From an uncultured Alphaproteobacteria bacterium (GTDB taxonomy: Bacteria > Pseudomonadota > Alphaproteobacteria > Rs-D84): a DNA stretch of 64,000 nucleotides. Below the pieces are notes generated by a model. The model ran no database searches and had not been told where the DNA came from. It was given only the letters and a program-made list of their open reading frames with translations. Shown piece by piece: positions 3,918 through 49,705 of the stretch (positions are counted from its first letter, which is position 1; each line of letters begins with the position of its first letter). Where the stretch lies: NCBI GenBank assembly GCA_944389495.1, contig CALXMN010000001.1, forward strand, positions 7,551 to 71,550, in the 5' to 3' direction. Made by a program: the position numbers and the translations under genes.

Positions 3918-4340
3918 TTAAATAGATTTTATCAGCGAATATCTGAATGGTTGATTTGCTGTTATTTGTTTTGCGCATTCTTCTGCGCATCGGCTGGTAC
4001 AGGAAAGGCTGTTGCTAAATGAAAATGCTTTTACCCAGTTTGACATAACGGGGTGAATTATTTTGCAGTAACAATGCCGATTGTTGTTTTGCGTTGTTGC
4101 ATCGATTTGCAGATGGGTTAGTGCGCCCGAGTTGTCTTCAGAAGAGCATCCTGCAATACCGTCGATAACCGTTTCTTTGTTGTTTGTGTCACAATTGGTG
4201 CGCCAATCATATGCACCTTTAAATACACCGGCACTGCATTTTGTAAGTCCGGAATCCAGTGCCACGCACTTTACAACGGCCGCGGCCGGCGGAATCGCGA
4301 CCACACACAACGCACCTGCGATTAGTAAATATTTTTTCAT
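3918..4340 (-). CDS. Small secreted Cys-rich protein (cassette 1, gene A)
   Basis: GGAGATAAGAAT-ATG; signal peptide; VVKCVAL and CYCK..P..S.W..C...CA..CA scaffold shared with 31411-31848. Confidence 0.85.
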   Translation of the reverse strand: MKKYLLIAGALCVVAIPPAAAVVKCVALDSGLTKCSAGVFKGAYDWRTNCDTNNKETVIDGIAGCSSEDNSGALTHLQIDATTQNNNRHCYCKIIHPVMSNWVKAFSFSNSLSCTSRCAEECAKQITANQPFRYSLIKSI

Positions 4341-4371: not shown

Positions 4372-4547
4372 AAAGAAAAACCACCGAATTTTTTAGGTGG
4401 TTGGAGTTTAAGAACAATTGATCGAATTGCGTGGCTTATTCAATATATTCACCACACTCCAACCGCGCGGGTTGGATTTATTTTACGTCCGTATTACCAG
4501 ACGCGATCAATGGGTTCTTAAGCCCAATGTGGAAACACCCCACATCA
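4372..4547 (-). ncRNA. Structured leader RNA, C4-antisense-like element copy 1, ending in an intrinsic terminator
   Basis: Homologous to 31212-31388 and 19140-19296 with compensatory changes; AACCACC/GGTGGTT hairpin plus U-run; upstream TTGATT-16-TATTAT promoter-like sequence. Confidence 0.7.
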
Positions 4548-4733
4548 GTATTTATAATATCATACGCGCGTGGTAAATCAACAGTAAATGTTATTCATAA
4601 TCATTTGTTAATCTTGTTCAAGGCAATGTTTGCAGTAAATTTTATGCAAAACACTTGACTTTTTAACAAAATATGTTACTTTTGTAGAAACTTTTGAACA
4701 AAACGAACAAGAACAATAACAAGAGAAAGACAG

Positions 4734-19065: not shown

Positions 19066-19296
19066 AAAAAGGGCGGGAATGCCCGAATTTGTGGAGATAA
19101 GATGGACATTCCCACGGCAGGTTACATATATTTGTAACAGGTGGTTGGAGGTTCAAAACTATATCAAGCAAATAGCGGAACTTATTCGATATATTCGTTC
19201 CCCTCCAACCCGATAAGCAATTGGTTGGCAGGATTTTAACGCAACCCGGTGCGCGCCTGATAGAGGTTTTGATGCCTCGCATTGATTCCCAATGCC
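19066..19296 (-). ncRNA. Stand-alone C4-antisense-like structured RNA, copy 3, with 3' hairpin exposing an anti-RBS loop
   Basis: Same stems as copies 1 and 2 with compensatory changes, loop GAATATATCGAATAA, CCTCCAACCACC; extended -10 TGTTATAAT upstream; 12-bp terminal stem with G-U pairs only on the minus strand, followed by CCTTTTT. Confidence 0.7.
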
Positions 19297-19380
19297 ATAT
19301 TATTATAACACGTTTAATTTTGCATTTCCAGAAAATAAAATACAAAACTTGCAAATGCGGGATAAATATCTTAAAATTTA

Positions 19381-31095: not shown

Positions 31096-31211
31096 GTTAT
31101 GGGTCACAGGGCGGTGGTATGTGTGGTGTATTTTTTTTTATTCTATGATGGGTTTGGTAACCGAATTTTATTATTCCTTGCGTTGGTATGGCTAATACGA
31201 TAATATAAATA

Positions 31212-31388
31212 CGTCGGTGGGTGTTCCGCCGATGGGCTTAAGAACCCTTTACACGCGTCTGATTCAGACGTTAAACAAAACGTCCAACCATAACGGTTGG
31301 AGTGTGGTGAATATATTGAATAAGCCACGCAATTCGTGTAATTGTTCTTAAACTCCAACCACCTGAAAATTTTTGGTGGTTTTTTCTT
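31212..31388 (+). ncRNA. Structured leader RNA, C4-antisense-like element copy 2, ending in an intrinsic terminator
   Basis: 43-nt and 25-nt blocks identical to copy 1 flanking a 3-nt variable loop; TTGCGT-17-TAATAT upstream; AACCACC/GGTGGTT plus U-run. Confidence 0.7.
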
Positions 31389-31410: not shown

Positions 31411-31848
31411 ATGAAAAAATATTTATTAATTGCGGGTGCGTTGTGTATGGTCGCGATTTTGCCGGCGGCGGCCGTTGTAAAGTGCGTGGCATTAAAGCCC
31501 GGCGAAACCACTTGCAGTGGCCCCAGTTTAAGTCCGGGTACGAATGAATGGACAACAACGTGTACAACAAATGGTACAAATGTGCCAGTCAGTGGTATAA
31601 TCGGGTGTTCGTCCGTCCGCGGCAGTTATGTTGGGGCCACTGTTGATGAATTACCAACAAATGTAAGAGCAGATGAAACGGTATACTGTTGGTGCAAAAT
31701 GACAAGTCCCGCTGTATCAAAATGGACGTATCGTACATCTTGGAGCGATGCAGAAACTTGTTTGAACTCTTGTGCCCCTAATTGTGCAAATGCATTTTGG
31801 ACGACGGATGGATTCAGTGATGGAATGTTTTCGTCTTTGTATGATTAA
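31411..31848 (+). CDS. Small secreted Cys-rich protein (cassette 2, gene A)
   Basis: GGAGATAAGAAT-ATG; MKKYLLIAGALC..VVKCVAL; CWCKMTSPAVSKW; paralog of 3918-4340. Confidence 0.85.
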   Translation: MKKYLLIAGALCMVAILPAAAVVKCVALKPGETTCSGPSLSPGTNEWTTTCTTNGTNVPVSGIIGCSSVRGSYVGATVDELPTNVRADETVYCWCKMTSPAVSKWTYRTSWSDAETCLNSCAPNCANAFWTTDGFSDGMFSSLYD

Positions 31849-31863: not shown

Positions 31864-32142
31864 ATGAAGCATTTATTTGTTTTTATATTGGCGATCGCGC
31901 CGTGTGCATCATTTGCCGCCGCGCCGTCAACATCGTGTCCATCCGGTTATGTTGCCATAGAAGAAGAATATATGGCCATAGCGAATACTTCGTGCCCATC
32001 GGGTTACACATCCGCCGGCGCCGCGGCCAGTTGTTTAATTACCTCGCCCACGGGGTCGTGCATTATGTACGCGCCGGCAAATACAGAATATGACGATGTC
32101 GCGGGTGTGTATCTGTTTACCGCCGCGTGTCCGTTGGAATGA
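31864..32142 (+). CDS. Small secreted Cys-rich protein (cassette 2, gene B)
   Basis: Signal peptide; CPSGY x2; CIMYAPANTEY...CPLE; paralog of 3620-3898. Confidence 0.85.
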   Translation: MKHLFVFILAIAPCASFAAAPSTSCPSGYVAIEEEYMAIANTSCPSGYTSAGAAASCLITSPTGSCIMYAPANTEYDDVAGVYLFTAACPLE

Positions 32143-32194
32143 TGTGTAAAACATAGGTGGTGTGAACGTGTATAATGGAACAAGGGGGGACAAT

Positions 32195-32222
32195 AAAAAA
32201 ATCGCCAATCGGCGATTTTTTT
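32195..32222. terminator. Bidirectional intrinsic terminator
   Basis: AAAAAAATCGCC-AATC-GGCGATTTTTT. Confidence 0.85.
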
Positions 32223-47808: not shown

Positions 47809-49705
47809 TTTTTCCATTTGGATATATAACAAATCCGCCGCGTAAAATTTTATGGTTGCACTTTGGTGCATCTATGTGAAAATAAGATACGATATAATCT
47901 ATGTCTTGGTTGTTGCACATTTGAACGATATTATTTTGCAGCGGAACATATTTTTGGATATAGGCCAATGTAAAATTTTTTGTTTCGTACATCCATACGC
48001 CATTTTCTGGTTTGCGCCGAATGTTTTTAAGTGCTGCGGGCTCGCCATTTATTTGTCGCCACGTATTAAATGTAAAATAATGATTGGATGCGCGCGATTT
48101 TGTAAAGCCCAATTTCCCGTCATTACCAACAAATGCCGCCAACTCGTGATCATTCGTTACATAAAACAGCGGTCTTGGTTGTGCCACAGCAAGACAAATT
48201 CCAATTGTTAAAAACGCGCCACCAAAAATATAGTTTATTTTTATATGTATATTTCGGATGAATATAATTGATATAAAGCCCAGGATGATAAATACCATTG
48301 CGATATTTGGTATGTGCGACAATGTAATTGTTGAACCGGGCATTGTTGTAATCCATCTGCCAATCCCCAGACAAAAGTCATAAATTTGTTCTGCAAAATT
48401 AATTGGCCACATCCATCCGAACAAAGATGTAAAAACGCCAATGCATACCAAAGGCATAATTGCGATTGAAAACAGTGGTAACAAAACAAGATTGCCAATC
48501 AGACCATAAACCGGCAATTCATAGAAATGCATTACAACAAATGGGGCGGTAAACAATGTTGCAACCCCAGATGTCAGTATTGCGGTATAAATTATTTTTA
48601 TAATTTTATTTTTGGGCATTTGTGGTTTTATATCGTTCCACAACCACACCAGTCCAAATATTGCCGCAAAAGACAATTGAAATCCGGCCTGCATTACAAA
48701 GTGCGGATTCATTATAAATATTATACAGAATGCGACACATACGTTGCGAACAGAAATTGCGTGTCGTCCAACAATGAATGCCATAAACACCAATGTTGCC
48801 ATAATAAATGCGCGAATTGTTGCAACGTCTGTACCCGATAAAATCACATAGAACAGTAAACCGCACCACGCACAAATTAATGCGGGTATTCGTGCCGGTA
48901 TGCGCCGTGTTAATGGTGCAATTGCGCGGAATATTAAAAAGAATATTGCGAACAACCACGCTGAAACCAATGTGATATGAAATCCACTGATTGACCAAAC
49001 GTGTCCGACGCCGGTTGCGGTCCATACGGGCGCATCGTCTTTTGGAACCGCATTTTTATAGCCCAACACCAATGTATCCACCAGAAAAGAATTTGTTTGT
49101 CTGTGAATCCAATCACGCAAATCGGAAATGCTTTCACCGTTTGATGGTGTGATGACGGAATATTCATCAATGTATCCCGTTGCAGTCAGGCCATTAAAAT
49201 ACATCCATCGTGCATAATCAAAAGATTCTGGTGCGTCTGCACCATCTGGGCGAAACAGTCCGATTTTGGCGCGGATTATATCGCCCAGTTTTGGTGGTGT
49301 AATATTCGTTCCGGCGGAAACACGAACGATTGCGTCGCCATCGGGGATGGCGTTAATTTGTGCGGCGTCTGTTTTTATATAAATACGCGTCTTGTCATAT
49401 GTATAGTCAATATGTGTGACCGTACCGATAATTTCTTGGTTATGTATATTGTGTGAAATCTGGGGTGTATTGATAAAGTGTGTAAATATTGCCGCCCAAC
49501 AAAACCCGATCAAGAACAAAGAAATTGCGCGCACAATTACCGGTGTATGTAATATGACAAAAATTATGCCCATAATCGCGCCAATAATACACAGCCCAAG
49601 ATTCGGTTCTGTACCCAGGTTAAAGTATAACCCGGCGCCAAATGCCAACAAGAATGGCACCCATAAAAACAGATTACGTAATTGATTTTTCCACAAATCC
49701 TGCAT
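47762..49705 (-). CDS. comEC: ComEC/Rec2 competence membrane protein
   Basis: OB-like domain with FDYAR, GVGHVWSISGFH, RAFIM, GFQLSF; no MBL domain; ATG 49705 chosen as start. Confidence 0.9.
   Translation of the reverse strand: MQDLWKNQLRNLFLWVPFLLAFGAGLYFNLGTEPNLGLCIIGAIMGIIFVILHTPVIVRAISLFLIGFCWAAIFTHFINTPQISHNIHNQEIIGTVTHIDYTYDKTRIYIKTDAAQINAIPDGDAIVRVSAGTNITPPKLGDIIRAKIGLFRPDGADAPESFDYARWMYFNGLTATGYIDEYSVITPSNGESISDLRDWIHRQTNSFLVDTLVLGYKNAVPKDDAPVWTATGVGHVWSISGFHITLVSAWLFAIFFLIFRAIAPLTRRIPARIPALICAWCGLLFYVILSGTDVATIRAFIMATLVFMAFIVGRHAISVRNVCVAFCIIFIMNPHFVMQAGFQLSFAAIFGLVWLWNDIKPQMPKNKIIKIIYTAILTSGVATLFTAPFVVMHFYELPVYGLIGNLVLLPLFSIAIMPLVCIGVFTSLFGWMWPINFAEQIYDFCLGIGRWITTMPGSTITLSHIPNIAMVFIILGFISIIFIRNIHIKINYIFGGAFLTIGICLAVAQPRPLFYVTNDHELAAFVGNDGKLGFTKSRASNHYFTFNTWRQINGEPAALKNIRRKPENGVWMYETKNFTLAYIQKYVPLQNNIVQMCNNQDIDYIVSYFHIDAPKCNHKILRGGFVIYPNGKIKYVSRTRPWHNPPE

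Follow-up and report, generated by a model that had tools for sequence, protein, structure and literature searches.

Can a repeated RNA element standing before genes of small secreted proteins give each of its loci an address of its own, or does it work only on the gene that it precedes? The question is raised by a stretch of 64,000 nucleotides (nt) from the genome of an uncultured alphaproteobacterium (contig CALXMN010000001.1 of assembly GCA_944389495.1), called here the window, which carries three copies of a leader of about 175 nt: copy 2, upstream of a gene for a secreted cysteine-rich protein, copy 1 on the opposite strand, and a third copy, also on that strand. A preliminary description of copy 2, made from its letters alone, had seen in it a locus-specific recognition code composed of a shared b-like and a private a-like site, and had compared it with the few loop changes which make the phages P1 and P7 heteroimmune, so that each cassette would be individually addressable. 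Most likely, however, the two halves of this code pair with each other inside a single RNA and thereby set a transcription stop, and separate addresses are improbable. The leader is probably a multi-copy 5' RNA, built on a module of the type of the c4 antisense RNA and its a1/b1 sites, which acts in cis as a transcription attenuator.

The positions given in the preliminary description were checked by exact string comparison, and what it had reported of copies 1 and 2 is confirmed. The blocks 31294-31336 and 31340-31364 of copy 2 recur unchanged at 4423-4465 and 4395-4419 (minus strand), and between them stands the triplet TGT in copy 2, ATC in copy 1. Upstream, the partner of this triplet changes in register: in copy 2 TTACACG is the reverse complement of CGTGTAA, and in copy 1 ATTGATCG is that of CGATCAAT. 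The first hairpin covaries as well, with TCGGTGG/CCGCCGA (31214-31220/31226-31232) in copy 2 and ATGTGG/CCACAT (4540-4545/4527-4532, minus strand) in copy 1. The upstream site which changes with the triplet is called here Y and its partner in the loop Y', the b-like site X (TTAAGAAC) and its partner X' (GTTCTTAA). X and X' are indeed present in both copies, but the term shared does not hold for the family, since fifteen versions of X, covarying with X', are found among the twenty copies of the genome. The labels a and b had also been swapped with respect to the annotated record of phage P1, where the loop site is b' and the single-stranded site is a'. Over the whole 3' half, from hairpin P3 to the terminator stem, copies 1 and 2 differ solely in three bases of Y'.

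The genome holding the window has 905,540 bp and is 96.8% complete. BLAST located 14 copies of the leader in it, from which a covariance model of the leader (R1) was built; a search of the 0.9-Mb genome with R1 returned 20 copies scoring at least 75 bits, among them the third copy of the window, as well as weaker and variant matches. Copies 2 and 1 have concordant minimum-energy folds (z scores of -5.7 and -5.9 against 200 shuffles), both composed of a hairpin P0, a long-range helix P1 (X...Y with Y'...X') enclosing the hairpins P2, P3 and P4, and the terminator. About 80 nt of one RNA separate the two partners of helix P1, which closes this fold. A pattern describing the 38-nt core had no match in 100 shuffles.

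Covariation was assessed on a model-based alignment of 57 matches (54 of them distinct) from 49 loci. Forty-five of the 52 pairs change on both sides among the distinct members, and 92.4% of the cells are paired versus 72.3% in column shuffles, none of 500 shuffles reaching the observed value; controls with a slid partner have 36-46% of cells paired. The X:X' helix, with 94.7% of cells paired, has eight pairs and the Y:Y' helices have six, and all 14 change on both sides: the a-like and b-like sites of the preliminary description are the two halves of one covarying helix. The local hairpins behave in the same way. Changes on both sides are found in eight of the nine pairs of P0 (95.6% of cells paired), in 6/6 of P2 (77.5%, its length varying among copies), in 6/6 of P3 (98.7%) and in 7/7 of the P4 stem, and the terminator helix is 95.0% paired. 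Pairs of G with U are frequent on the leader strand, e.g. UG 33 times and GU 31 times in P0, and the folded molecule is therefore the RNA of that strand.

The catalogue of loop/target pairs over the genomic copies, which the preliminary description had put forward as a check, shows that almost every copy has a self-complementary pair of its own. No two of the 20 copies of the genome have the same Y. The cognate partner is the best one in 16 of these 20, by a margin of at least 3 kcal/mol in 13, and in 45/54 copies across genomes. Mean duplex energies are -12.3 kcal/mol for cognate and -3.75 kcal/mol for non-cognate pairs within the genome, and, for 5' and 3' strands across genomes, -14.2 versus -4.05 (standard deviation 2.5) kcal/mol. 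The exceptions in the genome are L028 and L039, both before damaged genes, and L024 and L029, which have mismatched halves. From the P4 loop to the terminator the 3' halves of L024, L029 and L026 are identical, and in L029 the identity runs into the gene start; the matching 5' half is present in L026 only, and the 5' halves of L024 and L029 match the leaders L052 and L057 of relatives. L024 and L029 are gene-conversion chimeras with broken X/Y pairing. The uniqueness of the code is not absolute, since in a tandem array of a relative (L056) the adjacent units L056:1501 and L056:1305 share one Y/Y'.

A second set of pairings is found in the same RNA. The pairings of hairpin P5 and of the c4-like closing stem are absent from the covariance model and were assessed on the alignment of 57 matches. 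In the closing stem the 3' strand of P3, GGUUGGAG extended by a base, pairs with CUCCAACC directly ahead of the terminator; 96.4% of cells are paired and five of nine pairs change on both sides, pair 183:242, which lies outside P3, reading GC in 29 and UA in 18 cases. In the P5 stem three of four pairs change on both sides, with pair 214:233 reading AU in 35 and UA in 18. As the closing stem overlaps the 5' arm of the terminator by AACC, the three elements of a classical switch are present in the leader, with P3 as anti-antiterminator, the closing stem as antiterminator and the terminator itself. It was compared with what is expected of an attenuator: it sits between promoter and gene start, ends in an intrinsic terminator and has mutually exclusive terminator and antiterminator pairings, both conserved. 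The promoter boxes were read by eye; a formal promoter scan called the site of copy 1 (TTGATT-16-TATTAT) and not the boxes of copy 2, whose -35 box matches at 3/6 bases. A simple terminator scan also did not call the leader terminator, because its loop of 10-11 nt exceeds the 8-nt limit of the scan. In Rfam the leader is without match to known aptamer families, and it has no T-box features.

As long as the terminator has not been transcribed, the fold with P3 and helix P1 comes out more stable than the closing-stem fold, with a margin of 8.4 +/- 6.0 kcal/mol (50/52 leaders), a value which may overstate how far helix P1 and the c4-like fold exclude each other, since the nested energy models used cannot score the closing stem together with X:X'/Y:Y', a combination which would form a pseudoknot. 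Copies of the genome with a weak or broken helix P1 lose the bias (L033, -5.8; L024, +0.3; L029, +0.4). In the 15 copies with a gene called by the open reading frame (ORF) rule, the start codon follows the terminator at 15-33 nt; a Shine-Dalgarno sequence is present and there is no room for another promoter, as is also the case for copy 2, and the downstream genes would therefore depend on readthrough.

A mechanism may be built on what is directly observed (helices that covary, two exclusive pairings, cognate specificity and a place ahead of genes); termination, readthrough, the direction of the switch, the nature of its signal and an action in cis only are the parts of it that we infer. Transcription would start just upstream of P0. 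With X...Y paired to Y' in the P5 loop and to the adjacent X', helix P1 would close a four-way junction holding P2, P3 and P4. As helix P1 would enclose the junction and keep P3 closed, X:X' and Y:Y' would be an intramolecular clamp biasing the leader to OFF. In the OFF state P3 would hold GGUUGGAG, leaving CUCCAACCACC free for the terminator, and transcription would stop 15-33 nt before the start codon. If P3 or helix P1 were opened, GGUUGGAG would pair with CUCCAACC to form the closing stem resembling those of c4 and sRNA-Xcc1, AACC would leave the terminator stem, and the gene would be read through (ON). The switching signal may be common to all copies and be read by the invariant loops of P4 (GAAUAUAUUGAAUAA) and P0 (GGGUGUUC), which are the best candidate sensors of such a signal; the P4 loop differs at 0.09-0.23 of sites between copies versus 0.6 for Y/Y'. 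The helices would then serve as a scaffold private to each copy.

Copy-specific helices are the product of compensatory drift in any set of paralogous structured RNAs. In the leader the private pairs could have arisen by such drift, together with selection against the mismatched halves left by gene conversion; that copies 1 and 2 differ only in Y' within the 3' half fits conversion homogenising the flanks and selection matching Y' to Y. Within one closely related group the divergence of Y/Y' is 0.62-0.64 versus 0.45-0.56 for free loops, figures from which drift and diversifying selection cannot be told apart. Diversifying selection was considered as a candidate and dropped, the divergence in this group being not clearly above that of free loops.

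The parallel with phages P1 and P7 can be examined on the annotated record of phage P1. There c4 lies at 48343-48419, starts with GGU, ends with GCCACC and contains two internal hairpins, with b' in the loop of the second and a' as the single strand after it; a1 and b1 are upstream in the same transcript, in a region detected by the Rfam model c4-a1b1 (RF03163). In the leader, the place of a1 is taken by X and that of b1 by Y; b' has its counterpart in Y', and a' in X'. Like c4 and a1/b1 of the immI operon of phages P1 and P7 (RF01695 and RF03163, clan CL00128), the leader is composed of an upstream two-part site, preceded by a hairpin (P0) and complementary to the two sites of the core, followed by a closing stem starting with GG, an ACC tail and two hairpins; the second upstream site is complementary to the loop of the second hairpin, and the first to the single strand next to it. 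In the c4 of the two phages, as in the leader, few changes in the recognition sites separate near-identical copies. As to architecture the parallel therefore stands. It fails for the downstream target: when Y'..X' was compared with the 55 nt downstream, no site of the a2/b2 type at the ribosome binding site was apparent, the cognate energy being -7.03 versus -7.00 kcal/mol for non-cognate combinations and the median rank of the cognate 22/54. In distinction to c4, the closing stem of the leader competes with P3 and overlaps an intrinsic terminator, and is thus wired as an attenuator; at least 20 chromosomal copies are present per 0.9-Mb genome, and they stand before genes for secreted proteins and helix-turn-helix (HTH) regulators instead of in a phage immunity operon.

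Similarity of layout is not matched by similarity scores. The C4 model (RF01695), which gives c4 of phage P1 itself 68.8 bits, has no match at E<=10 in the whole genome (threshold 45 bits), and the best genome match of RF03163 has 13.1 bits (E 0.54, threshold 46.7), a level at which all 14 control genomes match. In a 3-kb stretch, the top match of a covariance model of the core only (R2) is c4 of phage P1, placed exactly at its mature 5' end, with 7.4 bits (E 0.72); as this score is not significant, homology is not claimed. The best Rfam match is sRNA-Xcc1 (RF02221), a family of small RNAs (sRNAs) from integrons, islands and prophages of Proteobacteria, whose closing stem, two hairpins, single strand of UUUGA type and CCACC tail align with the leader. 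Its model finds eight places in the genome (26.4-40.1 bits, E 5e-6 to 9e-3 per genome), all inside leaders and five of them in a variant of about 240 nt; no genome match reaches the gathering score of 53 bits, and copy 2 has no match at E<=10. At gathering thresholds the only Rfam matches in the whole window are two tRNAs, the leader being unmatched, and a permissive scan around copy 2 gave chance-level matches only.

The RNA sRNA-Xcc1 is also multi-copy and tandem, with five clustered copies in Xylella (PMC12189769), which the tandem leader arrays of relatives resemble. It is, however, described as a free-standing trans-acting sRNA, whereas the leader core is embedded with its own complementary site, P3 and the terminator before a gene. 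In Acinetobacter baumannii the c4-like sRNAs of Group 1 are many per genome, differ mainly in one recognition loop (a') and are apparently processed from longer transcripts at a GGW motif (PMC5320573). They match the Rfam C4 motif and some have antisense partners, but they are not described as terminator/antiterminator leaders of genes or as carrying a self-complementary upstream site. With leaders of the terminator/antiterminator/anti-antiterminator type (riboswitch platforms, T-box, classical attenuators) the element shares the position from promoter to gene, three like segments, two exclusive covarying pairings and the intrinsic terminator. It differs from them in its sensing part, which is a c4-type module closed by a two-part pairing of loop to strand.

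The literature on sRNA-Xcc1, on c4 antisense RNA with RNase P, on c4-a1b1 and on Enterousia gave no description of this leader, a mention in full texts or supplements on Enterousia being possible. That many c4-like RNAs of one genome may differ in one loop is already known from A. baumannii (PMC5320573). What is new is that the a1/b1-plus-c4 layout is fused to a terminator switch and serves as a general leader for genes of surface proteins in tiny genomes, and that selection on the upstream sites is visible.

The addressing proposed in the preliminary description would mean that a c4-like core is released, perhaps by an RNase P cut 5' of the GG, and acts in trans on X/Y of its own locus as in the heteroimmunity of phages P1 and P7. 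This is rather unlikely, even though the layout is that of a1/b1 plus c4 with Y' presented in a loop, the cognate partner is preferred in most copies and no two Y of the genome are alike, cores match sRNA-Xcc1 below threshold (26-40 bits), RNase P RNA of type A is present in the genome (C6:1399-1743), and the many c4-like sRNAs of A. baumannii, differing in a', are apparently cut at GGW. For no core was a complementary site found other than the one upstream in its own molecule, the 55 nt downstream having been compared as well, and cis pairing there will outcompete trans pairing. In 0.9 Mb a site of 7-8 nt would turn up about a hundred times by chance alone, which limits what a genome-wide search for trans targets could tell. 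All 21 cores of the genome lie inside leader copies, and the only one without an X/Y of its own, C9:15086, belongs to a decayed, truncated copy which has lost them. Also arguing against separate addresses are the lack of an a2/b2-type site near the ribosome binding site, the Y/Y' common to the two adjacent units of L056, the intact genes adjoining the mismatched halves of L024 and L029, the absence of a C4 match with the low R2 score of phage c4, and Hfq, for which no gene was found with PF17209 in this 96.8%-complete genome holding more than 20 c4/Xcc1-like RNAs. A combination of both ideas is quite improbable: readthrough would free the core at the GG, as RNase P does for c4 of phage P1, and its Y'/X' would capture X/Y of the same locus, blocking the clamp so that the locus stays ON. 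If such a self-addressed switch existed, paralogous surface-protein genes could flip ON and OFF independently and heritably without a change of DNA, which would amount to phase or antigenic variation by RNA alone, with a phage immunity module as its basis.

It is also unlikely that the unit is mainly an sRNA gene, its terminated RNA of about 175 nt being functional on targets elsewhere and downstream expression being incidental readthrough. Each unit does have promoter-like boxes and a terminator of its own, relatives carry tandem arrays of complete units, the third copy of the window is without an ORF close downstream, and the related sRNA-Xcc1 and c4 are free-standing RNAs. However, the 15 genes that start 15-33 nt past the U run, with their Shine-Dalgarno sequences and no room for a further promoter, do not suit this explanation; the covarying antiterminator pairing would be purposeless in a plain sRNA gene, and in the terminated RNA X'/Y' would be masked by X/Y. 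That the repeats act as DNA, e.g. as recombination or inversion sites or as a mobile repeat, with the complementarity reflecting palindromes, is extremely improbable. The chimeric L024 and L029 do point to exchange within the element, but G-U pairs are numerous and confined to this strand, covariation over 175 nt includes both nested and alternative helices, and orientation and distance to the gene start are fixed.

The attenuator itself has points to answer in addition to the possible overstatement of the fold bias. L024 and L029, with their mismatched halves, precede intact genes. Y/Y' differ as much as free loops in spite of changing in pairs, which would also be expected from diversifying selection. 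The tandem arrays of relatives may indicate a role of its own for the terminated RNA. The c4 of phage P1 keeps its closing stem while bound to its target. Finally, a Y' standing in the loop of a covarying hairpin is the geometry of antisense recognition, which a plain closing helix does not need. All these weigh against an action as attenuator in cis.

If the leader is such an attenuator, a phage-type antisense module (c4 with a1/b1) is the standard gene leader of a whole order of gut Alphaproteobacteria with tiny genomes, used 20-40 times per genome in front of genes for small HTH regulators and secreted cysteine-rich proteins. It would connect two usually separate fields, riboswitch-like attenuation and immunity by antisense RNA, and the twenty distinct Y codes of one genome, whose cognate duplexes surpass any other by about 8 kcal/mol, would be a compact, naturally orthogonal set of self-complementary RNA clamps. 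To our knowledge the function of the a1/b1 sites of phage P1 is still unclear; their equivalents in the leader are under visible selection and could show the role of such sites. At stake is also whether the expression of surface proteins in these uncultured symbionts is set regulon-wide or locus by locus.

The family is widespread. GyrA of the genome shares 92-94% identity with the GyrA of gut Alphaproteobacteria and of Candidatus Enterousia species. R1 has matches in 51/61 genomes sampled from the taxonomic family, with up to 43 per genome, and in 87/101 sampled from the order, for a total of more than 1000 matches across about 100 genomes. Among 139 genomes from other alphaproteobacterial families R2 has matches in six. 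Of these matches outside the order four were inspected, and all four have the identical layout with matching X/X' and Y/Y'; Rfam gave no RNA family at the four matches, only two tRNAs and one sub-threshold hit lying beside them.

The genes behind the 20 copies include nine intact ones for secreted cysteine-rich proteins of about 140 amino acids, three for other proteins with signal peptides, two for HTH_3 regulators and one ORF of 66 amino acids; four are damaged or shortened, and one copy has no ORF nearby. The coordinates of the leaders, their parts and their genes are collected in the table.

Table. Leaders, leader parts and genes. Positions without prefix are those of the window.
Feature	Position	Strand	Remarks
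Leader copy 2	31208-31386	+	
Promoter-like boxes, copy 2	31178..31206	+	TTGCGT, 17 nt, TAATAT; inferred by reading; block position conserved among 14 aligned copies
P0 hairpin	31214..31232	+	stem TCGGTGG/CCGCCGA, conserved loop GUGUU
Site X	31238..31245	+	TTAAGAAC; formerly b-like; pairs with X'; position of a1 in phage P1
Site Y	31249..31255	+	TTACACG; formerly private a-like; pairs with Y'; position of b1 in phage P1
P2 hairpin	31256..31270	+	CGTCTG-ATT-CAGACG; A-rich linker 31271-31282 next
P3 hairpin	31283..31301	+	TCCAACC-ATAAC-GGTTGGA; holds 5' strand of c4-like closing stem
c4/sRNA-Xcc1-like core	31295..31363	+	closing stem GGTTGGAGT (31295-31303) with ACTCCAACC (31352-31360); ACC tail 31361-31363
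P4 hairpin	31302..31330	+	loop GAATATATTGAATAA (31309-31323), conserved family-wide
P5 hairpin	31329..31345	+	GCAAT/ATTGT; loop carries Y' = CGTGTAA (31335-31341), its centre TGT (31337-31339) being the variable triplet
Site X'	31344..31351	+	GTTCTTAA; pairs with X; single-stranded in c4-like fold
Intrinsic terminator	31357..31386	+	AACCACC, 11-nt loop, GGTGGTT, T run; 5' strand shares AACC with closing stem
Gene downstream of copy 2	31411..31848	+	145-amino-acid secreted cysteine-rich protein; 24 nt after terminator; no Pfam family
Leader copy 1	4374-4551	-	P0 ATGTGG/CCACAT; X TTAAGAAC; Y ATTGATCG; Y' CGATCAAT; X' GTTCTTAA
Sites X/X' of copy 1	4514-4521/4408-4415	-	
Sites Y/Y' of copy 1	4504-4511/4417-4424	-	
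Gene behind copy 1	3918-4340	-	
Third leader copy	19096..19301	-	core is best sRNA-Xcc1 match of the window (19135-19210, 35 bits)
L024	G000:C3:48930-49101	-	
L029	G000:C3:76234-76409	+	
L026	G000:C3:37850-38024	-	
Long-class leader	G000:C5:45596-45682	-	best sRNA-Xcc1 scores of the genome, 34-40 bits (all five long-class leaders)
Long-class leader	G000:C5:47744-47839	+	
Long-class leader	G000:C4:9513-9610	-	
Long-class leader	G000:C4:71628-71724	+	
Long-class leader	G000:C1:161677-161765	-	

Behind the leader-controlled gene of copy 2 lies a second ORF for a small secreted protein (31864-32142, plus strand, 92 amino acids, no Pfam family), followed at 32191-32220 by a hairpin with a T run which belongs to a repeat family (D1) present four times in the window. 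Given this order, the leader of copy 2 probably controls a two-gene cassette. The third copy of the window has a well kept core, but other hairpins stand where its GGTGG terminator arm would be expected; it could be an orphaned unit or one with a different wiring.

A second class of leaders, of about 240 nt, has an extra hairpin and a larger P4 containing GUUAUACAACAGG, with the same X/Y logic as the class of about 175 nt. Tandem arrays of three to five complete units about 240 nt apart are found in relatives at G025:C1:71017-71916 (four units), G051:C4:75818-76473 and G131:C2:67936-69068.

Several copies of the genome are damaged. A truncated duplicate consisting of the leader 3' half only, beside a look-alike copy, is recorded for G000:C9:14992-15174 (plus strand) and G000:C2:18483-18650 (minus strand). 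The genes downstream of both are without start codon, and the two appear to be decaying cassettes. L030 (G000:C4:16581-16747, minus strand) lacks about 12 nt that make up the P3 3' strand and the first part of P4, and the gene behind it is out of frame just past its start codon, with a run of seven A versus six in the sister copies; the frame break may be decay or a slippage switch.

Two further structural features were noted. A GGG...CCC stem around X, which would present X in the loop of a short hairpin such as c4-a1b1 has, is possible but has no covariation beyond shuffles (76.2% paired versus 74.6%). A kissing contact of the P0 loop (GUGUUC) with the P4 loop (GAAUAU) is seen by eye only, and as the P4 loop hardly varies no claim is made for it.

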